A stretch of DNA of 64,000 nucleotides, from contig NC_092677.1 of the NCBI RefSeq assembly GCF_964355755.1, positions 26,399,175-26,463,174 on the forward strand. Reading direction: 5' to 3'. Position 1 is the stretch's first letter. Each line of letters opens with the position of its first letter. Positions 7,066 through 41,606 of the stretch are shown here, piece by piece. Made by a program: the position numbers and the translations under genes. This DNA is from Antedon mediterranea (lineage: Eukaryota > Animalia > Echinodermata). The notes beneath the pieces were generated by a model, which did no database searches, was not told where the DNA came from, and worked only from the letters and a program-made list of their open reading frames with translations.

Positions 7066-9934
7066 CACGAATATACAACATTCATTATATATAACATCTA
7101 AATAGATTCCTGTCATTTGCATAAAATAAAAGGTAGGCTAGCCAATGCCTACATTGATTAAAAAAGTAACATTTGGTTAATTAACAGGACCCCGTGACAC
7201 AACCGTAGGATTAACGAGAGGGGGTTTCCACGAAACACTGAGAATTTGAGCCACAGCCAAAACATTCACACCTCCCACTATAATCTAGTTGTCCCCGGAA
7301 ATGACACTCGTCATGTATAGCAGCAATCAGCAAAACGATTGTACCTTTTCTGCTGACATTGTTTTGTTTTGATTTGCGTTCAATGCGTAGTCAGTACTGT
7401 TATATATTGTTTTAAAAAGAGGTTTAAAAAAGACGCTAAAGCCTTATTAGCACACGCCTAAACCCGCGCCTCCTGACGCCACGAAAGTGGCAATCGAGTT
7501 GCGTAGCACCGACGACAGCGTTGAGTTTGAAGAGGGTTTAGAAAGGGTTTCTCCATCCCGAACGTAAGACAATATTGAAAAAAAAACCACGAAGTGCTTA
7601 CAAACTGTTATAGTGCAATCTTAATTGCAAGATATTGTTTTCATTACAAATGTTACACAATGTAGTGTGTTTATTGTTTTATGTTTTATGTGTAAAAGGG
7701 TCCTGCGAAAACAGAAGTGTAAACTTCTCTATGCAGGATCCTTGCCATCATTTATGCTATGAAACTGTATTTATAAACGATGAGTAAATAAATGTGAATT
7801 GAATTGAATTGAATTGAATGTATATTTAGAAAACTCCTCCTTACGGATCTTTTTCGACGAACTTTGATCAGAACGCTCGAAATGAACATCTGACCCCGCA
7901 GTAGATGCACGTGCGGAAAACGTACGTGGTACTATGTTGTATCAACCTGAGATATACACTCTACAGCCGGGTGAATACCTCAATGTAAACAGTGGTTGCA
8001 GTGATCGCCGTGTCTATAACACATTTCACAATGGCCGCCATTATGGACAATTTTCTTTTATGTTTATGGCATTAAAAGATGTTATCGAGATAGAAATTCA
8101 ATCATAAGTAACAATAAATGTTCAACTAATATTTCACATCATTTGTGTAACAGAACAAGTTTAACGTTAGAAAATGTCGACCCAATATAGTCATTTGTCT
8201 CAGGTTGCACCAACAAATGCTAAACCCAATGATCCGGTAATTTCTATTGTCATATTGGAATAACATGAGTTGAAATAAACATAATATCTAGAAGACTTGC
8301 ATTGTAAATGTTATGCTTCATTTAGAATAGAAAGTACACACACACAATACGTGCGATGGTTGATTTCTTTATAATGTGTATATCGGACATTGTTAATAAT
8401 ACAGACAGATATTTGTAAAGAATCGCTCACAACCTAGTAACGGTTCATTACTATTATTATTTCAATATAGACACATAACTACACGATTTAGGAATGATAC
8501 GTAATTTATAGTAATTATTTAATTTGATCATGTTATAAAACCGACTTCGGCTAAAATCTTGCGGTGGAGCTAATACCGATATGAACAAAAAAATAAATAA
8601 ATAAAATGGTACCTACTTGTTTATTAATTCTATAACTGGGTCGTGGAGCAAAAGTACTGATGATTTTCTAAGCAATTTTTTATTCTAGGGCACCGGAGGT
8701 ATAGTAGAGCGATTGATTACAGTTTTGTTAATAACAAATAAGTTTGATTTTGATGATGATATGATGGTAACAGGTAAGTTTACAGATACGTTGATATAAC
8801 GTTTGTTGTACAGCACGACGTTTCTTTTTAGAACTATATATACGTGTTGTGCCGCAAACTTTATATCAACATATTGATTTCAAAGTGTCAATTCAAACAA
8901 TATGTAGATACGGTAACAATCTATAGAAAAACTAAAATGTTGTTTTTTTGTCCTATCTATTTTATTTGTCCATTTTTCATTAAATTCAAAACTAATAAAT
9001 CACTAAAAAAAAATATTCAACTATTGTTGTAAAGTTCGATTTCCTGAGAGAATTGAAAATAAATAAGATACATGCTGTTTGATGACGCTTTCGGGCCTTT
9101 TGTAGCGTGCCGCTTGAATTTAAAAGACAACAGTTATATTGTGAAACCTTTAAAATCGACAACAACAAAACATACATAATTCCAATAATAAAAGGAATGT
9201 TTGCAGAAAGCATACTTAATTGACTACAACGTTTCACGATCCGTAACTAAAGTGATATACCTATTTTATCACTGTTATTCACAACTTCTTTTTTTGAAAT
9301 TCTAACAATTATACATTCTTTAAACCCATAAAAGTACCGTAGTTACCAAACACTAATTGCCAACAGCAAATTTCAGTTTTAGAAATATTTCCTGAAAGTC
9401 TTTATTCACAATACTAAAATACAACGTTGCAACATCTATTATAATGATTTCTGAATAGATTATTCAGAAAGGTGAGTAATATGAAAATTATTTAACAAGG
9501 CCATATATAACAAGTCGCGTGCTCAAGTTTTTACCGACCAACCGACCAACCGACTGACCGACCGACATAGTAAGCTGCAGAGTTAACTTGTTTTACTAAA
9601 GCGTTATCAATATGGAGCAATGAACAAAATGACACACTGACTAGCTGTATATCTTTCATTTTATATGTATATTCTCGATAACCACTACCACCTTAGTAAT
9701 GTCTTCTGCCTATATCGCCCCGCAAATACTCACAGAAGAAGCACATGCGAAATGCAAATCGCACTTACCGAACCGTGCGCCGCCAACGAGGAGAGAAATA
9801 TTACAAACAAACGAATAGATAAACGAGAAGAGAAATAATAGTAATACAAACCAACAAACAAACTAACGCACTGGGCCATGACAATAAAATATATAGCATT
9901 ATTTATATAATAGAAATATTGATTTCCATTGGCG

Positions 9935-10083
9935 TGCGTCACTTCCTTTGCAATTTGTATTGATTATTGAAGAGCGTATATGCAAGAGAAATATGAAATG
10001 GAAATTCCAACTGTCTAATCTTACAACAAACCTATTATTTAAGTGAAACGCAAACATGGGCTTCAAGCTTCTGGTGGGTAAGT
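9935..10083 (+). promoter_or_regulatory. Putative promoter and non-coding first exon of gene B
   Basis: TGCGTCACTTCC (CRE/ETS-like) 9935-9946; TGGAAATTCCA (kB-like) 9999-10009; GAAACGCAAAC..TCAAGC..TGG|GTAAGT donor at 10077/10078. The same layout recurs before genes E and F. Confidence 0.6.
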
Positions 10084-10661
10084 ATTTATTCTCAGTTAAA
10101 TCCAATTCATTTATTTCCTAAATAAAGTTCTCACCAACATACTATTGCGAATTTTGCCGAAAACAATAAATCTTAGGTGGTTTGATGCAGTAGTAAAAAA
10201 TGGCTAAAAAGTGACACACGATCATCAATACATGCGTAGAAATTTGGGTGGTGGCTGGTCCTAGTTTTACATGCATTTCAAGGCTATACTTGGTTGAAAA
10301 AGAGAATAGTAAAACTTAAGTTTTTACAACTGTAAGTTTGAAAATTGACATGTACGATTTTATACATTCTTTAGACAAAAACAAGTCAACATACCAAGTA
10401 AACATATACCACAGACAAATTTTCCGAGGTGGGTAAATTTTGTTTGGTGATCATTTAATCTATTTCAAGATTTGTAGAATATGCAATGTAAAATCTGCAA
10501 TATTTATTATTAACGTGTTCAGTGTAACAATGGTCTACATTAAAAACACGGTTTTAAATAATGTGGGTGTTGAAAGTGATGAGAGTTAGGGTTGTTTTAT
10601 ATTAGATGTATTTTCCCGCTTTTTAAATTTATTTATTATTTATTTTTGTAGAAAATGTCAA

Positions 10662-11193
10662 ATGGCATCCTTTGAAACAAACACACAATTACGCGACCTT
10701 AAATTTAGGCTCGGTGAATTTTATAAAGGTGAAAGATATGATTGGTTGAAATTGTGCCTCTTCTATTGTAGGGATATACCTATGGGGTCATTTCATCCAA
10801 ATTATATAGCAAATGATTTATTTAATTTGCTCCAAGAAAGAGGCTTTATCTCTGCTGATGATGTTTCGCTTCTGTTGGAAGTAGCCGAGCTGTCTGGAAA
10901 TGAAAAGGCGAAAGATCTTGTAAATCAGTACATCAAAGATAACAATCTTGCTACTGAAACACAACCATTGTCACCAGAACGAAAACGATTGTTAAAGGCC
11001 TTAGAGGAAGTTGGAAAAAGTACGTTAGAAAAGATAATTGCTTACTATGAGCTGAGAAACCATAGGCCTACGTTTCAAAATATTTGGGATATTGTTTTTT
11101 ATCTGGAAAGCGAATCACATTTACAAGAAGACAAAATAAAATCGTTTGCAAATCTTCTTCCGGAGCGTGCAAGTAATACATTACTTGATAATG
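10662..11193 (+). CDS. Gene B coding exon 1: tandem death effector domains
   Basis: Acceptor tttttgtAG at 10651, ATG 10662, donor G|GTAATT. DED-like motifs ..DLFNLLQERGFISADDVSLLLEV.. and ..RKRLLKALEEV..NIWDIVFYLES.. Confidence 0.75.
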
Positions 11194-14100
11194 GTAATTA
11201 TTCAATTTTAATAAAGTTTAATGATTTGTATACTTGTAATGAAACATTGATTTAAATGGTGACTGCACTTGGTTGATGATTGGGCTGTTGATTTGTTGAT
11301 TAAACTGAAATCTCATTTTTTCAAGCCCCACCAAAGTGTGTTTTTAAATAAATGAGTGCATTTTCGCTATGCACACAATGTGTATGATAATTATGATTAT
11401 TTTACATGTTTGGCCAGTATAGTAATTTGTTTTATAACACAACATCAGTTATGTATAAAATGCAACCGTCCGTTTTTAAATTTTAATTTGAAAACATTTC
11501 TTTTTAAAGGTGTTGAAATTGAAGTGATCGCCGAATTTCATAAAGACAAAGTATCAATAAAATTAGCTGGGGAAATTTATAAATATTGCAAGGAAATGTT
11601 CACAAAGATTAGTGAATATTTTGAAAGTGTCAACCCCTCTCTCAGTTTAAGTGACATCAAAACCACAGTAAATCCCAATACATCGCTAGAGTTCTTTCTA
11701 GATACAGGTAATAAATCTGCTTGGACACATTTGAAGAACATACAGTCGAATGGAAAGCTTATTAAAGGTTTAGCAACAGTATTTGTTAATAAAAGTGAAC
11801 AATCGATGTTTTTAGAAAACTGGGAAACATTAATTGACCACCAAAAAGGTAATTTTAGTACAAACACTAATTCACAAGTCAACAAGTACTTTAATTAACA
11901 GCATACTCCACTATTTTCAAGCTTATAATGAATGTTACGTGTTGGTTTTTTTTTATAATCAATACCCTTTTTATCATTTTATATAGTCAATTTTACTCAT
12001 TATAACAAGAAAAAAAAACCTTTAGTTTATGAGGTAAAACATGATATACCATACACGCAATGAATGGTTACACACAGAGATTGGAAAATAAGAAGAGAAA
12101 AACTTTTAACAAAAGTTCCTATAACATGAGATCTAAAAACAAATTAATAATACCTGATGATATGTTAAAGAGAAAATCTTGAAGACTTGAGTCATTTTGT
12201 CAACGAATATTTTGGGTTTTCAACAAGTTTTTTTTTCTGCCCTGTCCAATTGCCTTAACGTTCTGTCTGAAATAGGGACACTGATTGATTTCAAATCTAA
12301 CACCTAATTGCATATTTCCTTTAGGTTATGTGGAACTAAAGAAAGCGTCTTCGCCATTGACAGGCAGAAACCAACCACATGTTCTAGAAATATTTTTTAC
12401 CAAGCTTGTAACACAAAACAAAACATCTACCAAACACTGTAGTAATATTATGAAAGCTCTTACTACCTATTACAAGAGTTTTCATTTATATTTCACGAAA
12501 GTAGGAACGGGATCTTTAGTGTTATATCTAACTGCGTATGACTCTAACGCATTAGATAACTTATGGAAAGCATATTCCAGTGAGACGCTGCACAAGGCTT
12601 TGGCAAAAATAGTAGCAGATGAGTTCCAGCAAGAATTTCAACCAGAATCACTTTGTGTAAAAATAGATGAACAGGACTTTAGATCTGCAATGCAAAAGAT
12701 AAAGACAACAGGTACAGGCAGAAATTGTTATTATTATTTTATTTATTTCTTTATATACATATTTTTTATATTATTGACCGATTATACTCAGTGTTAATGA
12801 TTTTCTAATTTTAAATTATCACACGTGTTTTACCTATATTTATTATCCACTGTTTTATTCATTTCTTACATACATATTTTCTTATAATTGCATCAATTTT
12901 ATTACAAAAATGTCATTAATATATCAGGTCAGTTTAACAACCGTATGTTAAAATGGCTATTTATAGGCTACTATTGTATTATTCTCAATGACATTAAGGT
13001 CATATACTTGTAAATGTGATTCTGTGTGTGTCATTTACAGCTACTTCTGAAAAAACATCAAAGAACACTGTTTCAGCTTCAGAAAAATCAGAAAGCCAAA
13101 TTAAGGTAAGCATCAAATCAAAGTACACAAATTATAAGAATAAGACTTAGGCCTAAATAAAAGAAATTTCATGTTGGCGGATAATTTGTAATAAAGTATA
13201 AGACGTGGCTAGTTTAGTTACTCTTCAATGGTGACGTTTTTTCCGAGAAGGTTGCATATACCGTACTACCATTATAATGATTACTTTATGTTAAGTTCAT
13301 TCTTTCTGGACGCACCGTTACACCAGAGTACCACTGTCATTTTTCGAATAACGTTTATAATTATTAAAGCCATAACTTAATAGGCCTACATAAGCTTAAT
13401 GTGGTTAAATAAATTGTTGCAAAAAATAGCCTGAGTTAATACAGGCATAGTGATTGTCTCCAACGTTGAAAATCCCTAATACGATTATAAAGTGCTGTAA
13501 GCACTAAAAAGTAGAATTAAAACAATGTTTCATTAAATGATTTACAAATAAAATATGGTATCAAAGTATTCTTTTCGATACTTAACTATGAAATTAAAAT
13601 GCATTTACATACTTTGATTTCGAATTAGGAAATCTAAAGTAAACAACGTACTGTATGTAGGCACTAAAGTAATGCTAATTAAATACTGGACGTTATGTAA
13701 ATTGAACAGGCTACATAAAAGTGCACCCCAATCGCCAATGTAAAATTGATTTGATTTATCTGTACCGATAAGATGGTAATTATTCGGAGAATTCGTAGAA
13801 TAAAGAACAGTGGGCTACTTCGTTTAAACCCTCACAATTGTGTAGGGACGCTCAGGGCTAGAGTATGTCTAGAATAAAAACGTAGCATAATGTTATAGTA
13901 ATGATCACCTTAAATGAATAATTCGCTGAAAATTATTCCCATTGTAAAAGTAATTACTACGTTCTAAGCTGCAGGTGTACTATTTTGAACACACGCTAAA
14001 GCTCTGTCTACACTATCAAAAAAATGTCATGTGCCCATATATGGACATGATGATGTCATATCACTACCATATTTAGGCATATCACTACCATATTTAAGCA

Positions 14101-17100
14101 TATCACTACCATATTTGGGCATATCACACTTTTTTTTTGTCAAATTAGTTTGATAGTGTAGGCAGAATTTAAGAATATGGAAAGAAACGAATAACGAATA
14201 ACCTTACCGTCGAAGATATAACACTATAGTTATAAAGCCTACATAAATCATTCTATAAATGTTTATTATTAAATGGAAATTATTAAAAAAAAATATTTAG
14301 TAAGTCATAATTCAGTAAATTATTTGGTTTACAAACTTTTCACATGATAGACAGGTTCCATTTCTCAAAAAACGGCCTAGAAAACGAATCAAGAAGCATT
14401 TTTGGGTAGAAGCTGGGATCCACTTGATTTAGGATATTTCGACCTCGCTGATTACGAATATGGCGGATCCCAAGCGAAATTCGGCCATCTAAGCCCTTAA
14501 TTTGCATAATTAAAAATGGCGGCCATTTTTTATAATTACCCTATATCTCGAGAACCACTAGTCACAAATAATTATTTTTGGTCTCAAAATGTTTTAAATA
14601 TATGTTTTTATATTCACTTTAATGACACATTTTCTCAAAAAATGGATGCAAGTCTTATTTATATATACTGTGAAAAATTGACCTAGCTAGATTAAACTGA
14701 TATCAAGATAAGGTCAGAAAGCGATAAAACGCATAGTGATACCGGACCGACAGACAGACAGACAGACCGACAGACAGACCGACCGACCGACATAGTGAAC
14801 TATAGAGTCGCTTCCACGCGACTAAAAATGGCGGTCATTTTTTATAATTACCCTATATCTCGAGAACCACTAGTCACAAATAATTATTTTTGGTCTCAAA
14901 ATGTTTTAAATATATGTTTTTATATTCACTTTAATGACACATTTTCTCAAAAAATGGATGCAAGTCTTATTTCTGACATTTTGACCTTTGACCTTTATTT
15001 ATCGTATCTCAATAACCAATAATCGGAGAGACACGAAATAGGGCTCAAATTGTTCAGAAACTATACATTCATATTTATTATAATGAAATGTTTTTACAAA
15101 AAATGGCCGATTCTACAACTATTGATCTTTGAACTGTTAGACAAATAAAATAATATAATAATAATATAACTTTGAAAATTGTGGTCTTATGAATTGTTTT
15201 TTCTTTTTAAATTGTTTAAAACATGTGTGTTTCTATCCAGTCTAATGGCACATTTTGTACAAGAATGGCCGATAGTATGGTTATTGACCTTTAAACTACA
15301 GCATAGGCCTACTGTATACTAAATATAATATAATTGCATAACTATGAAATTATTTATACACAATAATAATTAGTAAAATTATAAAATTCACTGCCATCAA
15401 ATATGATGTGTTATGATTTATATAGATTTAAAAAAAAATTTGAACACGCAAGTTACATTTGTTGAAATTTGAAATTGGAAATTACCTGCCATCAATATGA
15501 TGGAGTATGATTATAGATTTTTTAAAATGTGAACATGTCAGCTACATTTGGAAATTACCTGCCATTAATATGATGGATTATGATTATAGATTTAAAAAAG
15601 AATTTGAACACGTAAGCTGCATTTGAAAATTACCTGCCATCAATATGATGGATTATGATTATAGATTTAAAAAAGAATTTGAACACATCAGCTACATTTG
15701 GAAATTTGGAAATTACCTGCCATCAATATGATGGATTATGATTGTATAGTACCTGCCATCAATATGATGGATTATGATTATAGACTTAAAAAAGAATTTG
15801 AACACGTAAGCTAAATTTGAAAATTATCTGCCATAAATATGATGGATTATGATTGTATAGATTTAAAAGAAAATGTGAACACGTAAGCTACATTTGGAAT
15901 GAACATGTTAAGGGCATCTAATCAGTTTAAGATCATTCATGCAAAGGTTTCCGTCATCTTTAGCGTTGTTACAGCGGCATAAAGCTGCACATGGTAGTTT
16001 TGACTTCTTGCACCTACATCTATTGGTTATGCATCGTGTCTTGCATCCACAATAAATCATCTCTAACGAAGCAGTAGGAATAGCTTCATTTTTCAGAAGC
16101 ACTGGTTGAAGTTTACCATTAGATAGCTCCAAACCATAATCTGTTGGTGATGGCAAATGCTGGATTGGCGATACAGCTTTTTTCCATACGAGTGCTTGGA
16201 AGTGTGCTCTTTTTATATGTTGGTGCACTTTCACTATGTCGGTCGGTCGGTCTGTCTGTCGGTCTGTCTGTCTGTCTGTCGGTCCGGTATCACTATGCGT
16301 TTTATCGCTTTCTGACCTTATCTTGATATCAGTTTAATCTAGCTAGGTCAATTTTTCACAGTATATTCCTTATGGCCAGGAATCAATGTGGTTATGTTTT
16401 CACGGTGCGCAATAAAAAATTACGCGGTCTACGCACGATTTAACGAAATCACGTTTGTAATCATATCTTCACAACCATGAATCACAATTAAATAAAATTT
16501 GGTACTCATAAATTTCAGGGCATAAATCATCATATGGCAATACAATTACGTGCGTAGCGCATGTAACGCATGCGTACGCGCGCTTTACATTTTCAAAATT
16601 TATTTTCGATGAAATAAGAGTACATTTCAGGCAATTTTAAGCGTTTACAAAATTGCCATGAGTGCGCATATTTTTGCGCGCGCACTGCGCGTTAAATGTT
16701 TTTGCGCACTCTTTTTGCCCGATTTCTGTTTTCTTGACTTACTTTTCAACTCGAAATTACGTTATACGAGCACGTCGAAAGTGACAGGCTACGCACGTGT
16801 AAATTAAAAAAAATAAATGTTTTTAAACATGTTCAGTGATTTCGGTCAGTATAGTTCACTATGTCGGTCGCTCTGTCTGTCTGTCTGTCGGTCCGGTATC
16901 ACTATGATTTGTAGCACGCGACTTAATGGCTGTTGGCCTTGTTAATTATGCATATTGAGGCCTTAGATGACCGAATTTCGCTTGGGATCCACCATATTCG
17001 TAATCAGCGAGGTCAAAATATCCTAAATCAAGAGGATCCCAGCTTCTACCCAAAAATGCTTCTTACATCATATTTCAGAGGAAATAGAACTTGTCTATGA

Positions 17101-19680
17101 CCACCACCGTAGTCAGATGGATCGGATGTCACACGGCGGCGTGCATACCGGACACACTCTTCATGTTTGCCTTTTATAGATAAAATTAATTATCATTTAG
17201 ATAAGAAGATGAATAAAAGTGATTGTTGAAACTTATTAATACGTCTTGGTTAGTTTTAGTTAAATATATATTCCTTTTGGATCTTTTTTCTGGGTCCTAC
17301 CGAGAAAAACGTTTACTTCTTTATATACTTTGTACTCATATGGTTTTTATTTCAATATTAGCTAAATAGTGTTCAAGAAATTAAATAAAATACTACCATA
17401 ATCGACGTACTTATTACATTGTGTTAACACAGGTGATTGATTGTGGGAGTGAGATTACACCTGAAGATGTTTACAGTTTAAAGGCTAAAATAAATTATGC
17501 TGAGTTTGTTCATGCTACTATGAGACTGATCTGCGAGACATCAGTGTGTGTTCTTAGGAATGCAGAGATTCGTATAGCATCTGATCCACCATACTCATTG
17601 TGCGCAGGGAACAGGGATAATAAAATTGCATTGTATAGAGGAGAAGATGGATCAATTAAGACTAAAAAGGAAAGCCACAAGGTAATCAGGGGTTTTGTTT
17701 TATTTAACATTTTAAAGTGTACCGGAATGACAACATAAAACCGTACAACAGGCCCACATTACTTGTAATTATAATACCATAATGATGCATATTGTTTTAA
17801 CACAGGTAGTTGACTGTGGAAGTGAGATTACACTTCAACATCTTCAAAGTTTAAAATCTGAAACAAAGGATGAGGATAAAGATTTGTTTGATGCTACTAA
17901 AAGACTGATCAGCGAGACACCAAAACGGGTTCTTAAAGACGCAGGCATTGTCATATTGACTGATGATTCAACATACTCACTGTATGCAGGGGACAAGAAT
18001 TATGAATTTGTAGTGTTTAGAGACAAAGATGGGTCAATTAAGACTAAAAAGAAGGCAGGAAAAAAGGTAATCAGACTTTAAATTACCGGAATGACAACAT
18101 AAAATCATACTCTTTTATTATAATACCATAAGCAATGTACTTAAAATATATTGTTTTAACACAGGTACAGGTAATTGATTGTGAAAATGAGATTACACTA
18201 GGAGATGTTCAAAGTTTGGAAACAAATGATGATGATGATAAAGATTTTATTCAAGTTACAAAAATGCTGGTCCGCAAGACACCAGCGTGGGCTCGTCAAG
18301 ATGCAGAAATTGTTATAGCATCTGATTCACCATACTCATTGTGTGTAGGGAACAGGGCTAATAAATTCAACGTGTATAGAGAGGACGATGGGTTAATTAA
18401 GATAATAAAGGAGATACCGAAGGTACGTAATCAAGTCTTTTACTATATTTGACGTTAAAGTATTGGAATTTACAACATAAAACACACATTATTTGTATAT
18501 ATAATACACTTTTTTAACACAGGTAGTTGATTGTGGAAGTGAGATTACACTTCAACATGTTCAAAGTATACAATTTGGAATAGATGATGATGATAACGAT
18601 TTTTTAGATGCTACTAAAAGACTGGTCTGCAAGACACCAACGTCGGTTCTTAAAGATGCAGAAATTGAAATAGCCACTAAGGATTCAACATACTCACTGT
18701 ATGCAGGGGACAAGAATAATACATTTGTAGTGTTTAGAGACGAAGATGGACAAATTAAGACCAAAAAGAAGGAAAGAAACCAGGTAACTTAACTTACTTA
18801 ACTTAATGTTTGATGGAAATAGTTTAGGCTAGTACCTATTAGATTCCATTTATAGCCGAAAATAGTCCAGACTTAAAGATGTTCAATGAAGAGGCTTAAA
18901 CCTTTAAGGCTTAAAGGTAATCAGATCTTTTGTTTTATAGGGGGTTTCATGTTAACTAAAAATGTCCATCGTCTATCAACTGGTATGAAAATTAATGGTT
19001 TAATAATACACTGTTTGTTTTACTCAATTAAATTAAATGAATTTATATTGTTGTTTCACCATCGTATCAATAAAATTAATATTACAACTTAATAAAATTG
19101 TATATTTCCATAATCGATGTACATAAAGAAGTATTTTTAAATATGTTGCCTGGACCCCACATTTTAAAGCTTAAGCTTCCAGTGGGGTACCCTTTTTCTC
19201 ATTTATTATCTATTATTTCTAGCAAATGTAACTGTATTTTGTTTTTATTTGAGAAATAAATGTATTGATTTATTGATTGATTGAATTATGGTTTTAACAC
19301 AGGAACCGGTCAAGATTTATTGTGGGACTGAGATTACACTTGTGGATGTTCAACGATTAAACGCTAAAATAAAAGATGAGGAAAAAGATTTAGTTGATGC
19401 TACAAAAAGACTGATTTGCGAGACAGAAAATTGGGTTCTGAAAGATGCAGAAATTGAAATAACGACTAAGGATCATAATATATACAAATTGTATGCAGGG
19501 AACAAGAGTAATGGGTTTGCAGTGTTTAGAGACAAGAATGGGTCAATTAAGACCCAACAAAGGAAACGGAGTTGGTGGAAGTTGCTGTATGACGGGCTTT
19601 GTTGGGTAGAAAGAGATAACACCCCGCTAACACAGCTAATGTTTGGTCCTAGATTAGCTGCTATCCAGTGGCGGCTCTAG
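10662..19680 (+). CDS. Gene B: tandem DED, 2x TRADD-N-like, linker, 5x X-domain, amphipathic tail; putative innate-immune/cell-death adaptor, 909 aa. join(10662..11193,11510..11848,12325..12711,13041..13105,17433..17681,17806..18066,18165..18422,18523..18783,19303..19680)
   Basis: All eight introns are GT-AG with consistent phases (1,1,1,0,0,0,0,0), giving 2730 nt open to TAG at 19680. Domain calls are by motif resemblance. Confidence 0.8.
11510..11848 (+). CDS. Gene B coding exon 2: divergent TRADD-N-like domain
   Basis: Phase 1/1 exon. SLEFFLDTGNKSAWTHLKNIQSNGKLIKGL parallels the strand/helix pattern of exon 3. Confidence 0.6.
12325..12711 (+). CDS. Gene B coding exon 3: TRADD-N-like domain
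   Basis: Phase 1/1 exon. GSLVLYLTAYDSNALDNLWKAYSSETLHKAL...LCVKIDEQDF fits the GS-hydrophobic strand / ALDxLW..Y.S..L / VxIxExD pattern of TRADD-like N domains in invertebrate death-domain proteins. Confidence 0.7.
13041..13105 (+). CDS. Gene B coding exon 4: 65-nt Ser/Lys-rich linker (phase 1 to 0)
   Basis: catttacAG|CTACTTCT...ATTAAG|GTAAGC, encoding (A)TSEKTSKNTVSASEKSESQIK. Identical copy at 25554-25618. Confidence 0.75.
13997..14171. mobile_element. MITE with ~24-bp TIRs
   Basis: TAAAGCTCTGTCTACACTATCAAA ... TTTGATAGTGTAGGCAGAATTTA, internal CATATCACTACCATATTT repeats. Duplicate at 26522-26674. Confidence 0.65.
15390..15900. repeat. ~70-bp minisatellite inside the Academ element
   Basis: About 7-8 copies of CTGCCATCAATATGATGGATTATGATTATAGATTTAAAAAAGAATTTGAACACGTAAGCTACATTTGGAAATTAC. 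Confidence 0.8.
15908..16234 (-). pseudogene. Transposase C-terminal fragment with CXC-like Cys cluster
   Basis: HIKRAHFQALVWKKA..LPSP..YG...CGCKTRCITNRCRCKKSKLPCAALCRC; cut on its 5' side by a HINE-like insertion. Confidence 0.75.
17433..17681 (+). CDS. Gene B X-repeat exon 1 (83 aa)
   Basis: gttaacacAG|GTG ... AAG|GTAATC, phase 0/0. Confidence 0.8.
17806..18066 (+). CDS. Gene B X-repeat exon 2 (87 aa)
   Basis: ttttaacacAG|GTA ... AAG|GTAATC, phase 0/0. Confidence 0.8.
18165..18422 (+). CDS. Gene B X-repeat exon 3 (86 aa; alternative in-frame acceptor 6 nt downstream)
   Basis: ttttaacacAG|GTACAG|GTA ... AAG|GTACGT, phase 0/0. Confidence 0.8.
18523..18783 (+). CDS. Gene B X-repeat exon 4 (87 aa; not in the ORF track)
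   Basis: tttttaacacAG|GTAGTTGATTGT ... CAG|GTAACT. VVDCGSEITLQHVQSIQFGIDDDDNDFLDATKRLVCKTP...DGQIKTKKKERNQ is fully open. Confidence 0.8.
19303..19680 (+). CDS. Gene B terminal exon: X repeat 5 plus amphipathic tail
   Basis: ttttaacacAG|GAACCG; ..RKRSWWKLLYDGLCWVERDNTPLTQLMF..QWRL*. Confidence 0.8.
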   Translation, partial: EPVKIYCGTEITLVDVQRLNAKIKDEEKDLVDATKRLICETENWVLKDAEIEITTKDHNIYKLYAGNKSNGFAVFRDKNGSIKTQQRKRSWWKLLYDGLCWVERDNTPLTQLMFGPRLAAIQWRL

Positions 19681-20585: not shown

Positions 20586-21321
20586 AACAAGGCCATATAG
20601 ATGGCTGCAGTCGCGTGCTTAGTGTTTACCGACCGACCGACCGACCAACCTACCAACTGACCGAAATTACTGAACATGTTTAAAAATGTTGAAATGTTTA
20701 AAAACAGTTATATTTTTTTTAATTTACACGTGCGTAGCCTGTCACTTTTGACGTGCTCGTATAACGTAATTTCGAGTTGAAAAGTAAGTCAAGAAAACAG
20801 AAATCGGGCAAAAAGAGTGCGTTGTAACATTTAACGCGCAGTGCGCGCGCAACAATCTGCGCACTCATGGCAATTTTGTAAACGCTTAAAATTGCCTGAA
20901 ACGTACTCTTATTACATCGAAAATAAATTTTGAAAATTTTAAGCGCGCGTACGCATGCGTTACATGCGCTACGCACGTAATTGTATTGCCATATGATGAT
21001 TTATGCCCTGAAATTTATGAGTACCAAATTTTATTTAATTGTGATTCATGGTTGTGAAGATATGATTACAAACGTGATTTCGTTAAATCGTGCGTAGACC
21101 ACGTAATTTTTTATTGCGCACCGTGAAAACATAACCACATCGATTCCTTGCCATAAGCAATATACTGTGAAAAATTGACCTAGCTAGATTAAACTGATAT
21201 CAAGATAAGGTCAGAAAGCGATAAAACGCATAGTGATACCGGACCGACAGACAGACCGACAGACCGACAGACCGACCGACCGACATAGTGAACTATAGAG
21301 TCGCTTCCACGCGACTAAAAA
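20586..21321 (+). mobile_element. Longer Helentron/HINE-like non-autonomous element
   Basis: Same ends as the short GACA-core element; near-identical inverted copy at ~16230-16943. Confidence 0.65.
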
Positions 21322-25553: not shown

Positions 25554-28500
25554 CTACTTCTGAAAAAACATCAAAGAACACTGTTTCAGCTTCAGAAAAA
25601 TCAGAAAGCCAAATTAAGGTAAGCATCAAATCAAAGTACACAAATTATAAGAATAAGACTTAGGCCTAAATAAAAGAAATTTCATGTTGGCGGATAATTT
25701 TTAATAAAGTATAAGACGTGGCTAGTTTAGTTACTCTTCAATGGTGACGTTTTTTCCGCGAAGGTTGCATATACCGTACTACCATTATAATGATTACTTT
25801 ATGTTAAGTTCATTCTTTCTGGACGCACCGTTACACCAGAGTACCACTGTCATTTTTCGAATAACGTTTATAATTATTATAGCCATAACTTAATAGGCCT
25901 ACATAAGCTTAATGTGGTTGAATAAATTGTTGCAAAAAATAGCCTGAGTTAATACAGGTATAGTGATTGTCTCCAACGTTGAAAATCCCTAATACGATGA
26001 TAAAGTGCTGTAAGCACTAAAAAGTAGAATTAAAACAATGTTTCATTAAATGATTTACAAATAAAATATGGTATCAAAGTATTCTTTTCGATACTTAACT
26101 ATGAAATTAAAATGCATTTACATACTTTGATTTCGAATTAGGAAATCTAAAGTAAACAAAGTACTGTATGTAGGCACTAAAGTAATGCTAATTAAATACT
26201 GGACGTTATGTAAATTGAACAGGCTACATAATAGTGCACCCCAATCGCCAATGTAAAATTGATTTGATTTATCTGTACCGATAAGATGGTAATTATTCGG
26301 AGAATTCGTAGAATAAAGAACAGTGGGCTACTTCGTTTAAACCCTCACAATTGTGTAGGGACGCTCAGGGCTAGAGTATGTCTAGAATAAAAACGTAGCA
26401 TAATGTTATAGTAATGATCACCTTAAACGAATAATTCGCTGAAAATTATTCCCATTGTAAAAGTAATTACTACGTTCTAAGCTGCAGGTGGCCTCACCGA
26501 TGTACTATTTTGAACACACGCTAAAGCTCTGTCTACACTATCAAAAAAATGTCATGTGCCCATATATGGACATGATGATGTCATATCACCACTATATTTA
26601 AGCATATCACTACCATATTTGGGCATATCACCCTTTTTTTGTCAAAATACTTTTATGGTGTAGACAAAACTTAAGAACATGGAAAGAAACGAATAACCTT
26701 AAATCATCCTATAAATGTTGATTATTAAATGGAAGTGAATTAAAGTAATCCACGACCACGTGGCTTTTCTTTTACTTGAAACGTAACTATCGACCCACCT
26801 CTCTAAACGGTAATGATGCTGTTTACACGGTCAGCTTTTACATTTTACCTATCGGATGTCGCACGGCGGCGTGCATAGCGGACAAACTCTTCGTGTTTGC
26901 CTTTTATAGATAGACAACAGACCCCAAGATTATCTTTCAGATTATCATATATATATATATATATATATAATAGATAAGAAGATGAATAAAAGTGATTGTT
27001 GAAAATTAATACATCTTGGTTAGTTTTAGTTTACCTCAAGGAGGTATATGTAAGCGGTCGCGTGTGTTTGTTTGTTACTTGGCAAAATAAAATTTTGCCA
27101 AGTAGGCCTATAGTGTTTACTTTGTATGTTTGTTTGTTTGGAGACAATTTTCAAAAGCCGGCGAGCAGTCTTAAAGTAACAAGTGTACTGAAATTGCATT
27201 TTCTCGAGAACTACTTGTCCAAAAAACATCATTTTTGTACAAGAGGCAAGAGTTATAAATTGTGATTTGTAATTTTTAAAACATAATTTGATTTATTGTG
27301 CACCTTTGTTGATGCGAGTAGTTCAAAAAACCTATTTCTTTTCAAATTCCCTCGTTTGATTTTCGCGTTGCTGTTCTATTGTCAACTGAAGCTAATTGTT
27401 AATAACCATTACACCAAACTCGCATACACATGCTTGTAGTGAAATTAGCCTAAATCACAAACAGCATTAAGACACACACAAATATATATATGTATATATT
27501 TTCCCGGAGAAATCTTATGTAGGAGAATTTTACAATAGGCGGAGGTATGCATTCTCGGAGTGGCTTTCTAGTTTAATGTACATTCGTTTTGGATCTCTTT
27601 CCTGGGTCCTACAGAGAAAAAGGTTTAACTTCTTTATATACTTTGTACTCATATGGTTTTTATTTCAATATTAGCTAAATAGTGTTCAAGAAATTAAATG
27701 AAATACTACCATAATCGACGTACTTATTACATTGCGGTAATACAGGTGATTGATTGTGGGAGTGAGATTACGCTTGACGATGTTCACAGTTTAAAGGCTA
27801 AAATAAATGATGCTGAGTTTGTTAATGCTACAAAAAGACTGATCTGCGAGACATCACAGTGGGTTCTTAGGAATGCAGAGATTCGCATAGCATCTGATCC
27901 ACCATACTCATTGTGCACAGGGAACAATGCTAATAAATTGTCATTGTATAGAGGGGAAGATGGGTCAATTAAGACTGACAGATCAGGAGACAAGGTAATC
28001 AGAGGTTTTGTTTTATTTACAACTTTTAAGTGTACCGGAATGACAAAATAAAATCATACAGTAGGCCTACATTACTTGTAATTATAATACCATACTGATG
28101 CATATTGTTTTAACACAGACAGTTGACTGTGGAAATGAGATTACACTTCAACATCTTCAAAGTTTAAAACCTGAAACAAAGGATGAGGATAAATATTTGT
28201 TTGATGCTACTAAAAGACTGATCTGCCAGACACCAGAACGGGTTCTTAAAGACGCAGTTATTGTCATATTGACTGATGATTCAACATACTCACTGTATGC
28301 AGGGGACAAGAATTATGAATTTGAAATATGGGTCAATTAAGACTAAAAAGAAGGCAGGAAAAAAGGTTATCAGATGTTTTACTTTATTTATAACGTTAAA
28401 TTACTGGAATGGCTACATAAAACCATACTCTATTATTATACTACCATAATCGATGTACTTAAAGTATGATTGTTTTAACACAGGACGTACAGATGGTTGA

Positions 28501-29277
28501 TTGTAAAAGTGAGATTACACTTGGAGATGTTCAAAGTTTACAATTGGAAACAAATGATGCTGATAAAGATTTTATTCAAGTTACAAAAATGCTGGTCTGC
28601 AAGACACCAACGTGGGTTCTTAAAGATGCAGAAATCCTTATAGCATCTGATCCACCATACTCATTGTGTGCAGGGAACAGGGCTAATAAATTCAAAGTGT
28701 ATAGAGAGGACGATGGGTCAATTAAGATAATAAGGAAGGCGATAACGAAGGTACGTAATTAGGTCTTTTGCTATATTTGACTTTAAATCATTGGAATGAC
28801 AACATAAAACACACATTACTTGTATATAATACTACCATAATGACGTACATTGTTTTAACACAGAAAGTTGACTGTGGAAGTGAGATTACAATTGGAGATG
28901 TTCAAAGTTTGCAATTTGAAACAAGTGATGATGATAAAAATTTCTTAGATGCTACTAAAATACTGATCTACGAGACACCAAGGTGGGTTCTGGAAAATGC
29001 AGAAATTGAAATATCAACTGATGATTCAATATACAAAATGTATGCAGGGGACAAGACTCATGGATATGTAGTGTTTAGAGACAAAGATGGGTCAATTAAG
29101 TCCACCTCACAAAAAAAACGTGGTTGGAGGAATTTGCTATATAATTTATATATAGATGACTCGGATAGTTGGCTCCCGATTGCACCTCTAATGCTTTGTT
29201 CTAAATTAGCTATCGAGGGGCGGAATGTCAGAAGCGCAGCAAGCGATGAAATCAAGGGGGGATCATCCACTAATTGA
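25554..29277 (+). pseudogene. Cassette C: linker exon plus four X exons, join(25554..25618,27746..27994,[28119..28365],28484..28750,28864..29277); no DED/TRADD-N exons; pseudogene or alternative 3' cassette
   Basis: Duplicate of gene B from its exon-3 donor onward (24310 onward matches 12711 onward). The second X exon has a 14-nt deletion (stop at 28340) and a GTTATC donor. The other exons are open with intact splice sites. Confidence 0.7.
27030..27571 (+). mobile_element. Helentron-type non-autonomous element
   Basis: TTACCTC..GGAGG start, GGCGGAGG..CTAG|TT end; absent from the paralogous intron at ~17260. Confidence 0.6.
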
Positions 29278-31363: not shown

Positions 31364-33330
31364 TTAAGATATTATACATCTAGATGTATATCTTTCATGT
31401 ATATGGAACTCTCCCTTCGAGTCAACATAACCTGTAACCTCTTTCTGCTGATCTGTTTCTCCAGATGAAATGTGAAATGAAGAATTACCCTGACCGTAAA
31501 GAGATAGTTTTACGTTCTTGTAACTGGTTGCTTTATCAGTCTCTAACTTGGTCATGAACGCTTGTAGTAGTCTTCGTAGTCCAGTCTGTTCTTTCGTTTG
31601 TTGAGCGCCCTCATTTCCACAAAGTTTGAGTATGATATTTGCAAGTGTACGTTTGTTTATTTCATCGACGCAAAACTGAAAGTTTATAACAATAATTAAA
31701 CTGATGAAAACAATTAGTAGTAGTTATGAATCATTTCAATGACAGTGACGTCACAGAACATTTTAGCCACATGGACCTATAATATCCATATATCAGATTG
31801 ATATTACTTTTTTAAATCCAGAAAATGTTCGTTGATAAAAGAGCAAATATAAGAAAGAGAAGTATTGCCTATAGAGGGGGTAAATATTTAGAATCGTTTG
31901 CCTGATCCCAAAAGTGTCAAACTAAAATTGGAAATTTAAAAAAAAAAATACAACAAAAATACTCACTCATGTAGAGTCCACTTATTATTATTTGTTATCA
32001 TTATTGTTATTTGATATTTTAACTTTTTTAATTGTTGTTTTTGCTAATTAGATATAATTTAAAAGGTAAAGTGTTTAAGAGCTTCGGCTCGTTACATAAT
32101 CCATTTTGTAGAAAGAAAAAAATAATTTTCACTGAGTAACATAAAATTACTTTATGTCTCAATTTTGCTTAATATAGACCTTTTCCAAAAGTCTTAAATA
32201 AAAAAAATCCTAAGACCTACCATGACTTCTTCGCGGTGTTTATCATTCAGGTGAACCATTACAGCAAACTTCTTCGCACAGCTGCTATTAAATGTAACTT
32301 GTTCTCCATTCAAGCCACAAAATATTAGCTTTAAGTTAGAAAACCCTTTTTCTCGAAACGAACTTGTGAAATCTTTCCAGTAGGATAGATGATTGGTCCA
32401 ATCTTGAACTGGTAGGTTTAATGTCTCAAAGTCGGGTTCAGAAGGCCTGTCACGTAGGTCAACAGAAGATAAATCTTCAAAAACACGAGATATACATCTG
32501 TGACTTTCTTCATTGGCAAGACAAGAACAATCTGGAAGGTCCACAATCCACTATAAAATACAATGTATATCAATTCAGAGAAACACTGATGAAGGGCTAG
32601 TGCAATTTTTCTCTCCGGCTGTTTCACTTTATCGTTTTGGTTTAGCATATTTTATTTGTATCTCCATTGAGGTTCAAACACATTTTTTCAGTAATATGTC
32701 TTTGAATTTAATTCAGAGAAACACATTTTAATATGTCATATGAAAAATGATCAATGTGATTAAAGTTAACTTTTAGTAGGCTTTGTATTCAACTTAACTA
32801 TTATCAATGTCGTGAAAAATAGTAGGCATAGTAATGTACTTATTAAATAATAAGTTCTTATAAGCCTTTTATATCGGTAAAATATAAGATTTGACAACCC
32901 TTTGAGAACAATATTATGTTCTCGAGAAATATATTTTCCTCAGCTAGCGCTTCGGGAAATATATATTCCCTCGAACAAAATATCATTCTCTCAGGGATGT
33001 CAAAACTTATATTTACCCTCTAAGCAGTCAATATCTGTATAATAATGTACTGTAAAAGAAGTATATTACATTGGTATTTACTCTCCATGTGTTTATCGTC
33101 ACCTTCAACGTATACTCGGCAACAGTAGCTTCACAACAACGGGGAGGCCTACTCCATTCAATGGTACCAACGCTCGTCTTTCCATGACTTTTTGTTGCAA
33201 GAAAATCTGCGCATGCGTTTGCAAATTGACGTTGTGTTTGTATGGCTTCATTATTCGTTTGAACGTTTGTTTGTTGAAATATATCATCTACAACAGATTT
33301 CAGTTTCTTGATACTGAATTCATTCTTTTG
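31364..33330 (-). CDS. Gene D: unknown protein of at least 296 aa ending in a CaaX motif; complement(join(31364..31675,32221..32550,33082..33330)); start exon not resolved
   Basis: Three open exons (249, 330, 312 nt), all phase 0. Acceptors ttttcccAG, ttttatAG, cttttcAG; donors GTAAAT, GTAGGT. Ends ..RYTSRCIIS*. Confidence 0.7.
32876..33017. repeat. ~140-bp imperfect palindromic element in a gene D intron
   Basis: GGTAAAATATAAG.TTTGACA.CCCT...AGGGATGTCAAAACTTATATTTACC around the centre CCTCAGCTAGCGCTTCGGG. Confidence 0.6.
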
Positions 33331-34063: not shown

Positions 34064-34240
34064 ACTTACATACAAGAGATACAGTACACTACAATCAGAA
34101 AGAGTTGACTTGTTGAATGAAGTTGTGTGCACCACCAACAATAGGTTGACGTCACTTCATTTACATTTAAAGATTGGAAATTCCAATAAGAATATTTTAG
34201 AAAAGCAAACAGTCGGTTTCCAAGCATTTGGTTGGTAAGT
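34064..34240. promoter_or_regulatory. Putative bidirectional promoter between genes D (-) and E (+)
   Basis: Minus-strand GTAAGT donor at 34069-34064; CRE TGACGTCA 34147-34154; kB-like TGGAAATTCCA 34175-34185; plus-strand GTAAGT donor at 34235. Confidence 0.55.
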
Positions 34241-34627
34241 ATGGTTAATACCCTTGAAATATTTTAGGTTTACTTACCACCACTAAAATTTCACCGTATA
34301 AATATAAATCCTAGCTACTAGCTGCAGAATTTCGTAGTAAAAAAGGTGTCTTTGATGACAACAATTTAATATAACAAAACCTGGAATTACCAAGCCGACG
34401 AGAGAGCTTCGTACTGCTGGAACGATTGGTGTGTAGGCCAAATTACGTGTGCGTGGTTTGTTTCCGACCATCAGAATGGAAGGTGTTTCGTTGCAAAGTG
34501 AAACATGGTAGGCCTTAAAGGTTTTAAGTTTGGTGGAAATTAAAAAGAAAAGCTACTTCTTATTTTTGGTTTAGGTGAAGCCGCATATTTGGTTGGTGTT
34601 CTACATTCTCTATAACATAAACTCAAC

Positions 34628-35297
34628 ATGCCAAAGGAGGTACGGGTAAACATATTTTTGTAGTAAAATTATTGTCCACTATATATTATAATGTTTCGCA
34701 CTCGGTATTCATAACAACTAAAGTACGTAACAATGCTTTTAAAAAGGTTTAAGTTACCAGGGCATTAGGTACACCGGCAGGTTATTTAAGAAAAAAAGAT
34801 AACAGTGATTGTTTTTTTAAATTTGAAGTGAACAAATAAAATATTCATCATTCCAAATCCAAGGGAATATATAAAGGATATAATCGTATTAACAAAAATA
34901 CCATTTAATGTATTCAAATATTGTTTTTACACAGGTTGATATTGATTGTGGAAATGAGATTACCCTTGGAGATGTACAGAGTTTAATCTATAAAATAGAT
35001 GAAAATTTAGTTGATGGTACCAAGAGACTGGTTTGCAAGACAGAAAAGTGGGTTCTTAAAGATGCAAAAATAATTATAGCATCTGAGCCACTATACTCAT
35101 TGTTTGCAGGGGACAAGGCTAATGTATTCACAGTGTATAAAGAAAAAGACGGGTCAATTAAGACTGAAAAAAAGGCGCGTGGTTGGTTGAAATGGTTCTA
35201 TGATGCATGTGTCTGGGTTAAAGATAACGTTTCGATTAGAGAGATACTAAGCATCATACTTTTGTTTTCGTCTAGTAAGAGAGCTATCAAAAATTAA
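34628..35297 (+). CDS. Gene E: stand-alone single X domain plus amphipathic/hydrophobic tail, 124 aa; join(34628..34639,34935..35297)
   Basis: Acceptor at 34574, aacATGCCAAAGGAG|GTACGG micro coding exon, then tttttacacAG|GTTGAT exon open to TAA. AATAAA lies right at the stop. Confidence 0.75.
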
Positions 35298-38200
35298 TAA
35301 AAATAATAATAGAACAAACATCAACATATTTAATAATAAATCAATCATGGTTGTTATTATCGAAATAGGTTATACTTTTTTCAAAATTTCATGCTGAGAT
35401 AGATAAAAATAGTTTAAAAAATCAATGTGCAGGCCTACAATCAATATAACACAGGAAAATAATAATAGGCCTACATTACAAATTTACTCAATTATTTGTA
35501 AATATCATATCTTCACCATTTTTTGTATGGACAGTGTGGCTTGCTATATTTGGATTAAAGTACAATTTGATTACACTAGTTATTAGTTATAATGTATCAC
35601 CATTGATTCATTAATCATTATTGCGTCGCAAGCTCTGATGTTGTTTTCTTAACATGGTGAAAGAGCAAGGTCCATAGTTGAACTAATACTTCAGCTTATA
35701 AGGTGGAATATTATCTGATAACTGTATAGGCCTTTACATAGCCTTTTTAAACAATTTATAACCACCATTTTAGACATTTGCATTGTTTTAGATTGTTTAT
35801 AACATTTTTCCTTCTTTTTAATTGTGAGTCCGAAGTTTTAACTTTCTGTATTGTATGTTGATTATGACCGAATGAATGAATGAATGAATGAATAGTATTT
35901 AAAATGGATATTATATAAAAATGTAGTAACTTTAATAATAATCATTTAATTTCATTAATTAATTTTGTATTCATTCAAAAGAGAAATATCATTTAAAAAA
36001 ATATAAACGTTGATCAAACTGGTTCACTGACTTGTTTTCATTTACTTATAACAGTTGACATCAACGAATACAATAAACGATACATTCATATTTATTAGTT
36101 TATAGGCCACAATGTTGGGTTTTTATACAGATATGTTGTACCCCTAAACAAATTTTGTTTCAAATTTTTTTAATATGCCATTTTAATGTCACGTAATAGT
36201 TATTCACTTTGACCGAAAACTGGATCAAAAAAAAATTTACCTAAAAAAATGTAATTTAAAACAGAAATGCTGTCTGTCAGATTACTCAAACTCAAATGTT
36301 ACAGTAGGTGGAGGTATGCAACCTATTGTTTTGGTACCGAAACAAATTTAATGGGTCACGAAATGTACGTTATTGTTATTATTTATTTAAATAGATATCC
36401 TACTAAGTAGTAGTACACAAAGTACTGTATTATTAATTATTAATTTCATGAACTTCAAAATGCACTATGGTGAAAATAAACATTTAATATCAGGGGCGGT
36501 CGCATGAATATTTTAATGGGGTTGCCTAAAGAGTAGGCCTACAGAGCGGTAGACAGTAGTATTTGAGCCACAGTCCCCATGGTAATACACGAACAATAGA
36601 AATGTCTACATTCAACTGCAAACACAATGTAACAAACCAAAAAATATGTGTGAATGATTAAACTAATGGGACGAAGTTGAAACTAGATACAATATTTAGG
36701 TTGCCAGCAACAAGAGACCTCATATTTTACTCACTGTTTCAACAAACGCAAAGATTGTAACATTTAAGCACAATTAGCTTAGTATAATTGAACAATCTAA
36801 TTATTACAATGGATCAAATATATCATACACATTTATCTCTGATTAGATATGATCATATATCATGATACTACTTGACTGTCATTCAGTCAAGATTTAAAAA
36901 ATGGTTTTAGAACACAATTTCTGATTTCATCGCCGAAGGTTTTCAACCGGGGCCGCGGTAAAAGCAATTTTCAGGTCAGTGTTAATCACTTGCGACTTTC
37001 TGGTTTTGACTAAGTATTTGCTGCCCTCTTTAAGCCTAGGCGGCAACGTTGCCCGTTGGTGGCGATATTAATTACTAAATTTTAATTACTAGCAGTAACC
37101 CGTGCACGTGCTCCGCACGGTCGTTTCCTGCCTTATTATGTGGTTATACTTTGCATGTACAATAAAAGCACACTCCGATAAAAGTACTTTGACAAATTAT
37201 TAAAATAAAAACAAATTGTATCACGAATAAAATTCGGAACTACTGCCATTGACTTGTTATACACTATCTCTTCACTTTAAGAAATATGTAGGCTAAAAAA
37301 TTAAAGCAATAGTGCATATAGAACTATTTACTTTTGACTTTACGAAAACAAAAGACGCTAAAGAAAAATATGGGAGATTTGTTACCTACTTGCTACTTTT
37401 TTAATTAAATTGTGGTCTACTAGTAACCCATGCTCCGCATGGTTTGTCTGCCTTAATAATAATTCGCATGGCATGATTAAGTATATGCGAACTCTTCCCG
37501 GCCCCTGACAAATTATTTTAAAAAAAATTGTCAAGAATGCAATTCAGAACTATTTACGGCCATTGATTTTGTTCAATACTGGATATGGGACTTTGCTTTG
37601 TGAATGATTGATTGCGGAAATGCGATTACACTTAAAGATGCCGTGCGTCTGTGATCTTTGATTTCATAGTATCAACGGTGCAATCTACGACTTCTGTCAT
37701 TTTGGTATAACCTTTCAGAAGCTGACTGATATATAGCGTGCCATAGTCGGGTCTCTCTTATAATATTTTCTGAACGTGTTTCAGAGCGTTTCTAACAGTC
37801 ATCGCAAGTTTCACGCCTAAAAATAAAGAAATGTTTTACTTTATATCAAATCAACAGTATTTTACTTCTTTAAATTATGAAAACAATGAGCGAGCAATAA
37901 TTTTGGTATGACAATTGATGACAACCGTAATACGGAACACAATATAATAATTGAAAGTACTCAGAAACTGAGTGAAGTACTACTACTTGGCAAAATATAT
38001 CAGGGAAAACTATATTCGGAGAGAGAGAGAGAGGGCTCACTACTTGATATTTCAGCCCATCTTAAAATAATACAGAGGGCGTGCTATTTAATATTTCAGA
38101 TCATAATGAAGATACATGTTTTGTAAGTAAGTACCTATTAACACCCTAATATTCAGGACGATAATTAAAAAACTGTGGACGCTATCGTGCGAACAAATAA

Positions 38201-40419: not shown

Positions 40420-40883
40420 AAACTTCAACATCACCATCAATGGAGAAACTGTGAAAATGTAGAGATAGCAAAATATTTAGGAAACAAATTGGATATAACA
40501 GAAAGAAAACAAGAATTCAGCAGGAACGTGGGTGCTCTGTATCCTATTCGAAAAAAACAAACATGTACCTAAGAAAACCAATCAAATAATCTTTGATACA
40601 GTCTAGTCCCCTACATTGATGTATGGTACAGAAACATTGGCAATAACAACAAATTGAAGCAGCCCAGCAAAGATGGCTTGGTCATTTGGAAAGAACGGAT
40701 GATAAGAAAGTAGCAAAGAGATATGTTGGAATTGGAAACCATGTGGCAAGAGACCAAGAAAAGGGAATCCTAAATAGAAATAACATGCCCACATTACAAG
40801 AAGTGAGAAGTAGCGGAGAGAAAGAGGCTAGCATCACTGACAGGCGAAAGCCTACCTGAAAGCTGAAGTAAGAAGTAAGTAAG
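40420..40883 (+). mobile_element. RTE-clade LINE 3' fragment in the gene F intron
   Basis: Degenerate ..KYLG..PTLMYGTETLA..QRWLGHLER..WKPCGKRPR.. followed by an (AAGT)n-like tail. Confidence 0.7.
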
Positions 40884-41025
40884 AATTCCATCATAAATAC
40901 AATGTATTACTTGTACAGTTCTACTGATAACAAAGTGCAACCATAATACTAATTAAATAATAAATAAATAATCAAACATAGGAATTAAATAATAAAATAG
41001 TATAATGTAATTAACCCAGTACTAT

Positions 41026-41203
41026 TACTACTACCACTACCACTATTACCACCACCACCAATAAAACCACCTCCACTACCACCACCAATAAAAACCACCT
41101 CCACTACCACCACCAATAAAACCACCTGCACTACCACCACCAATAAAACCACCTCGACTACCACCACCAATAAAACCACCTCCACTACCACCACCAATAA
41201 TAA
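41026..41203. repeat. 27-bp minisatellite (ACCACCACCAATAAAACCACCTCCACT)n
   Basis: About five tandem copies visible directly. Confidence 0.85.
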
Positions 41204-41606
41204 TAAGATGGTGATTACCATATTATAATTAATAGCCCAACATTAGGCTATATTATACGATGACGAAGTTTTTGTTGTTGATGCTTACCTGTGTCATGTT
41301 CAGTCTTCGTTTCCGTAAAAATAATAAAGCACACAGTTTCTTCTAAATGTAGAAAACGGCATGTCAATTATCAAACTTTACAAGATCTCAAGTTCGGCCG
41401 CCGTCAATACTGACGATTGGCTACCATCTGTTCACATCTCACAAGATCTAAACTTTTCAAAACTAACAACTATGCCTACATAATTTTCGCCAGGCGCTAT
41501 AAGGCACTTTCCCCCGATTCATGGATGTAGGCCTACAAACATTTTATAACTTACTGCTACTATACAAACATAGTCACATATTTAACAGATAACAAATATA
41601 ATATAT

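Follow-up and report, generated by a model that had tools for sequence, protein, structure and literature searches.

A 64,000-nucleotide (nt) stretch of the genome of the echinoderm Antedon mediterranea (contig NC_092677.1, positions 26,399,175 to 26,463,174; hereafter 'the window', to whose numbering all coordinates refer) was found to harbor a cluster of genes, termed A to E, that share copies of a domain of approximately 85 amino acids (aa), here called X. In one of these, gene B, nine exons with canonical splice sites and compatible phases combine into a single open frame of 909 aa; the predicted product consists, in order, of tandem DEDs, two units termed T1 and T2, a linker, five X domains and a tail, with the X array corresponding to the 3' part of the gene. 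It is likely that the front cassette and the array do constitute one gene, and that architecture, together with what appear to be relics of the event that joined its parts, is described below.

The array of gene B comprises four internal X exons and a terminal fifth, with one domain per exon, all on the + strand. The internal exons extend over 17433-17681 (B1; 249 nt, 83 codons), 17806-18066 (B2; 261 nt, 87 codons), 18165-18422 (B3; 258 nt, 86 codons) and 18523-18783 (B4; 261 nt, 87 codons); each is a multiple of three in length, lies in phase 0-0, and is flanked by TTAACACAG| on its acceptor side and |GTA on its donor side. An earlier reading of this DNA (the original prediction) had placed their starts at 17433, 17806, 18165 and 18523, with spacings of 373, 359 and 358 nt, and those values proved exact. 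Short introns of 124 nt (17682-17805), 98 nt (18067-18164) and 100 nt (18423-18522) separate the internal exons, and are followed by an intron of 519 nt between B4 and B5 (18784-19302), which from about 18918 onwards matches the intron of gene A (self-BLAST 2199-2424 versus 18913-19130, 82% identity). The terminal exon B5 (19303-19680, stop codon at 19678-19680) encodes an X domain and a basic, tryptophan-rich tail of 40 aa. An AlphaFold model of B2 was obtained with a predicted local distance difference test score (pLDDT) of 87, and the predicted model of B5 displayed a core at pLDDT 94-98, with a helix following the domain (residues 91-104). B3 also contains a second in-frame AG located 6 nt inside the exon; at the donor of B4 approximately 135 nt appear to have been inserted (18784-18917), with AGGTAA at both ends of the insert, which provides a new GT and thereby leaves exon B4 intact.

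B and C together have six short introns; after removal of the splice-site ends, each of the 15 possible pairs was compared against 300 shuffles. Fourteen scored beyond every shuffle (z 4.3-19.7); the comparison of B introns 2 and 3 did not (z 0.6, with 83 of 300 shuffles equally good). The homology of the three short introns indicates that exon plus intron was the duplicated unit, as had originally been proposed. The further claim that any subset of exons could be removed in frame also held, in that all 16 subsets of the four internal B exons maintain an open frame.

The front of gene B begins with a motif block and exon 1 (9930-10077, +; donor after 10077), in which CGTCACTTC lies at 9937 and GGAAATTCC at 10000. 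Exon 1 also harbors an upstream ATG (10056-10077) that opens an out-of-frame reading frame of 39 codons overlapping the DED start; this feature is absent from gene D and could damp translation. The tandem DED exon (10652-11193, start ATG at 10662, 177 aa, ending in phase 1) is followed by exon T1 (11510-11848, phase 1-1), likely a diverged TRADD-N-like unit, by the TRADD-N-like exon T2 (12325-12711, phase 1-1), and by a 65-nt linker exon rich in serine, lysine and glutamate that passes from phase 1 to phase 0 (13041-13105), assigned from its splice sites and frame. T1 gave no Pfam match, and its region weakly resembles T2 (E 0.004). A relative of this cassette is present in another A. mediterranea protein, P0002 (one relative among 1437 candidates), whose front has the same DED-DED-T1-T2 order at 58-64% identity: its residues 1-177 are 58% identical to the DED exon of B, 178-290 are 58% identical to T1, and 304-421 are 64% identical to T2. 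P0002 reads across the DED/T1 junction as predicted for B, passes the Pfam DED cut-off (59.9 bits), and matches the tandem DEDs of caspase-8 (E 4.6e-4). Where B carries five X domains P0002 ends in a second DED pair, such that a constant front is joined to a differing C-terminal part among relatives; a DED pair of that type was not found within the window, and the X exons are therefore the only coding exons found downstream of the cassette. The predicted B protein displayed neither a signal nor a transmembrane stretch (maximal 19-residue hydropathy of 1.11), and on that basis is predicted to be cytoplasmic.

A profile built from the exons recovered 13 X exons in the window, in agreement with the number and the unequal copy numbers originally reported: two in A, five in B, four in C and one each in D (34935, +) and E (40323, -), the latter two being the single-X genes that had earlier been labelled E and F. 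Paralog A (1942-2825, +) has one internal and one terminal X exon; its count is a minimum, as repeat remains cut its upstream intron. Paralog C (25554-29277, +) retains a second copy of the linker (at approximately 25554) and four X exons at 27746, 28119, 28484 and 28864; its exon 1, DED exon and T exons (exon 1 through T2) have been lost, and its second X exon carries a 14-nt deletion that leads to a frameshift and a stop. Gene D (34147-35297, +) is a stand-alone X gene with a motif block, a non-coding exon 1 (donor after 34234), a start exon (34575-34639) that ends MPKE in phase 0, and an exon for X and tail (34935-35297), with a predicted product of 124 aa. Gene E (39973-41735, -) has a start exon reading MTQ (41297-41289) and an exon for X and tail (40323-39973) that holds an in-frame stop. 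In addition, an 18-codon piece of the start of an X exon (37604-37657, +) is likely a decayed fourteenth copy. For the terminal exons of B (19303-19572) and A (2445-2714), contigs of the A type, assigned by 18 of 18 listed letter differences, were present at a depth of approximately 240-270 in run X2, and B-identical contigs at approximately 130-160; this contrast hints at either a further copy of A's exon or the presence of B on one haplotype only, with the caveat that contig depth is not copy number.

Several features connect B to the stand-alone genes. The exon 1 block of D found its best non-self match in exon 1 of B (score 53; null 21.4 +/- 4.4 across 2532 windows), and on the + strand of the window CGTCACTTC and GGAAATTCC, which we take to be CRE/Ets-like (CRE, cAMP response element) and NF-kappaB-like sites, occur only before B and before D. 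Within intron 1 of B lies what appears to be the relic of a start exon (10334-10407, +), in which the ATG reads ATA and the donor has been lost; it was the best non-self match of the start-exon blocks of both D (43; null 19.2 +/- 3.5) and E (51; null 20.4 +/- 3.9). P0001, a further A. mediterranea protein with X domains, begins MPK, like the start exon of D. It is likely that a DED cassette was inserted downstream of the start exon of an X gene, and that this start exon subsequently died; that the cassette entered the X gene, rather than the reverse, is suggested by the wide spread of stand-alone X genes.

The X units themselves group in a tree by position and not by gene (B1/C1/P0001-1, B2/C2/P0001-2, B3/C3/P0001-3 and A2/B5), and B, C and P0001 share one order of types 1, 2 and 3, with bootstrap values of 94-100. 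Neighbors within B are 71-74% identical and B2 and B4 84%, compared to 86-96% between positional paralogs. This grouping and these identities indicate that the array predates the paralogs and has been neither homogenized nor reordered, and the free shuffling of units that had been envisaged earlier finds no support in the shared order or in the low identity of neighbors. The last exon of C may have arisen by fusion of unit 4 with the terminal unit, with p values of 0.0075 and 0.015 when A1 is taken as parent and of 0.19 and 0.20 when B4 is.

Pairwise ratios of nonsynonymous to synonymous substitution (dN/dS) were close to 1, both for positional pairs (1.04, confidence interval (CI) 0.68-1.68) and for neighbors (0.87, CI 0.66-1.20). 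Reading frames have nevertheless been kept: neutral simulations were run 300 times per scale at three scales, and in no run did all five B exons stay free of stops; outside C2 pairwise exon indels measured 3, 6 or 9 nt in 93 of 94 cases, versus 17 of 60 in introns (the pairs not being independent). The combination is accounted for by a conserved and a fast class of sites. In codon models built for this analysis, which kept branch lengths at M0 proportions and did not model recombination, comparison of M1a and M2a across 12 exons gave p 2e-5, with 15% of sites at omega 3.6 and 30% at omega 0.2; p was 0.0015 without indel-adjacent codons, 0.00036 under an MG model and 0.0056 without C, and site 40 recurred in all five site-model runs. 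These results indicate positive selection on some X sites, and differ from the uniform purifying selection that the original prediction had set against its own proposal.

Beyond the window, X matched no named family, and the family seems undescribed. Relatives were found in crinoids, in hemichordates (as arrays of 2-10) and in amphioxus (fused to CARD). P0001 is 77% identical to B2, and its RefSeq model joins types 1, 2 and 3 in tandem; in Anneissia five proteins consist of X and tail alone, and an amphioxus protein has the order CARD-X-X-tail. The Ptychodera arrays P0009 and P0022 end otherwise than with X and tail; among the isoforms of a 10-X Ptychodera protein, four differ by 1-4 residues and the fifth just lacks the first 420 residues. 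Across 24 sequences one glycine is invariant and one cysteine nearly so, and 13 of 15 tails carry a net positive charge. Elsewhere in the window, a second family of small minus-strand open reading frames (ORFs) (31367-31723, 46279-46069 (broken) and 63891-63625) displays a helix-helix-strand pattern like that of X; a profile comparison with X (E 0.0047, probability 7.5%) makes its members possibly remote X relatives.

Broken reading frames at 1-1715, which we presume to be LINE-like (long interspersed nuclear element), end exactly inside the upstream intron of A and have no Pfam support. A separate segmental duplication occupies 49628-61763; its 2-3 copies share 84-90% identity, and their ORFs are short, broken and devoid of Pfam matches. 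Tandem repeats are located in the long intron of B (15380-15900, 75 nt, 3.5 copies) and in the intron of E (41027-41200, 27 nt, 5.5 copies), and a 600-nt element belonging to a high-copy repeat flanks the whole B array in inverted orientation (16230-16835 and 20690-21292, 96% identical).

Taken together, these observations can be accommodated by a history that starts from a small X gene resembling D and E, with a non-coding exon 1, a start exon and an exon for X and tail. This gene would have multiplied its X exon, each exon being duplicated along with its intron to give five copies, and a DED-DED-T1-T2 cassette, shared with an X-less relative, would have come in behind the start exon, which then died; the array would be spliced whole behind the grafted-on cassette. 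In the resulting protein the X copies might bind pathogen-derived or damage ligands that differ or overlap from copy to copy, the basic, tryptophan-rich tail might anchor the protein to a membrane, and clustering might trigger assembly of the DEDs and bring in a caspase-8-like or TRAF-like partner. Germline duplication, deletion, pseudogenization, point selection and grafting would be the sources of diversity, to which exon skipping would add little at most. An immune context for B is likely, given its DED and TRADD-N-like exons, the selection on X and the upstream motifs; to that extent the original comparison with immune receptor families is supported, and the combinatorial splicing proposed with it is not. 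That B encodes, in full, a constitutively spliced, fast-evolving, multivalent X sensor array on a grafted death-fold adaptor acting in cytoplasmic innate immunity has, in our estimation, about an even chance of being correct, and the specific role of the array as a sensor is just as finely balanced. More tentatively, and on balance doubtfully, X may represent an innate-immunity domain of basal deuterostomes, undescribed so far and possibly of a new fold, that was multiplied independently in crinoids, hemichordates and amphioxus. It would also have been coupled to death-fold adaptors on separate occasions (to tandem DED/TRADD-N in gene B and to CARD in amphioxus), with this locus recording that coupling and with phase-0 exons allowing individuals to vary their sensor array by haplotype and splicing.

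A number of observations weigh against the account of B as a grafted sensor array. The B DED exon matches Pfam DED at E 4e-5, below cut-off, and its identity accordingly rests on P0002; the match of T2 to TRADD-like_N (PF20694) reached E 0.026-0.054 and 14-15 bits versus a cut-off of 23.7, making the TRADD-N identity of B only suggestive; and the joining of T2 and linker to X1, over a repeat-filled intron of 4.3 kb, is a prediction only. The relic matches are short and AT-rich; the start-exon block of E has an unrelated next-best match with a score of 50, and a scan of the window with its exon 1 block did not pick exon 1 of B. Selection is less evident for B alone (p 0.068 for M1a/M2a and 0.019 for M8a/M8), gene conversion among paralogs can inflate site-model tests, and a mosaic signal was seen in a few of 847 triplets. 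Finally, tail amphipathicity exceeded shuffles in only 2 of 15 cases, and paralogs C and E are broken.

One alternative is that the array serves as a combinatorial repertoire, with internal X exons skipped or mutually excluded as in Dscam or brown-algal ROCO genes. The in-frame behavior of all 16 subsets would permit this, homologous introns also occur around mutually exclusive exons (PMC6071210), the pyrimidine tracts are weak, and skipping of C2 would rescue the frame of C; moreover, neighbors in B diverge less in their introns than in their exons (0.17-0.22 versus approximately 0.35-0.39 over ungapped columns, the intron values being biased low by the dropping of gapped columns), which could reflect conserved regulatory elements. 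However, long exons between introns of approximately 100 nt are the opposite of the architecture of short exons and long introns with which exon skipping is associated across eukaryotes (PMC6142364). For the motif blocks of the three introns (one block tested per intron), no shared docking partner was found within 12712-19680, each picking a different best partner that did not exceed shuffles (2, 2 and 14 of 25 as good), and they are not connected with upstream sequence by any inverted repeat. The database model of P0001 joins the three types in tandem, none of the five Ptychodera isoforms shows internal loss of a whole domain, and at most 16 forms could be produced. Combinatorial use, as originally proposed, thus appears fairly unlikely, and the array is probably spliced for the most part constitutively.

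In another reading, X and tail might together be an effector, rather than a sensor, that DED or CARD assembly clusters so as to act on a membrane or host target, with the stand-alone X genes inducible; the X-tail proteins of Anneissia and of the window, the amphioxus CARD-X-X-tail protein, the charge of the tails and the helix predicted after the domain are all in keeping with this, and Kaur et al. (PMC8195603) call many C-terminal partners effectors. Its unlikely standing reflects the restriction of the tail to the last exon, with internal copies lacking it, the different ends of P0009 and P0022, the single invariant glycine and nearly invariant cysteine, which form no catalytic set, and a hydrophobic moment that is unremarkable in 13 of 15 tails. 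The broken state of C and E, the overall dN/dS of 0.8-1.0, the dead start exon and the repeat-filled intron before X1 would also fit a cassette that was stranded by insertion and killed the X gene, leaving a decaying cluster and not one working gene; this is improbable, since all nine exons of B keep an open frame, undamaged splice sites and phases that agree, neutral simulation rejects the survival of the frame, and there is a conserved class at omega of approximately 0.2. Together these features show long constraint, though a very recent loss may have followed it. X might, lastly, be a remote relative of REDD1/RTP801 (PDB 3lq9), through which B would link death-fold signaling to mTOR or stress control. 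That protein, whose reference features are an alpha/beta sandwich, a psi-loop and an EPCG/KKK patch, is the top structural neighbor of the X model, and a weak one: its Z falls short of the 7-8 that the tool gives as background and differs by no more than 1 from that of unrelated rows, and the motif is not conserved across the wider X family, such that the relationship is highly improbable.

Under the preferred account of a sensor array on a grafted adaptor, the origin of the array is mechanistically ordinary; what distinguishes the locus is an apparently undescribed domain and the visibility of the probable graft. Grafting onto death-fold adaptors in marine invertebrates has been inferred from architecture catalogues and is rarely seen with relics in place, and here exon 1, a dead start exon, stand-alone donor-type genes and an X-less relative are found together. 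The X family offers a small, confidently modelled, positively selected domain for ligand testing, and gene B a clean test of the combinatorial use of symmetric exon arrays.

Comparison with known systems places the gene among several partial counterparts. With proteins of the caspase-8/cFLIP type it shares the N-terminal DED pair, followed here by an X array and no caspase domain. Clusters of the Dscam type (PMC6071210) similarly contain tandem homologous exons with similar flanking introns; here no shared docking/selector pairing was found, the database model joins the units, and the product is predicted to be cytoplasmic and not an immunoglobulin (Ig) receptor. In brown-algal ROCO/NB-ARC-TPR genes (PMC11378527) each exon carries one 72-bp solenoid repeat, and both splice variants and shuffling are documented; the behavior originally proposed for the X exons is thus real in another system, whose units are far smaller. 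These genes resemble the array in giving every unit its own same-phase exon, in their tandem duplication, in having sites under positive selection and in a proposed immune role; gene B differs in its globular units of approximately 255 nt and in their fixed order. The TRADD-N expansions of marine invertebrates described by Kaur et al. (2021, PMC8195603) combine a constant DED and TRADD-N part with variable flanks or C-terminal modules, and share with gene B a tandem DED/TRADD-N-like front, relatives with different ends, an echinoderm host, nearby repeat remains and a change of architecture by gene fusion. Relative to those systems, the TRADD-N match of B falls below cut-off, and B adds an unnamed domain in an exon-by-exon array and visible relics of the X gene onto which the cassette was probably grafted.
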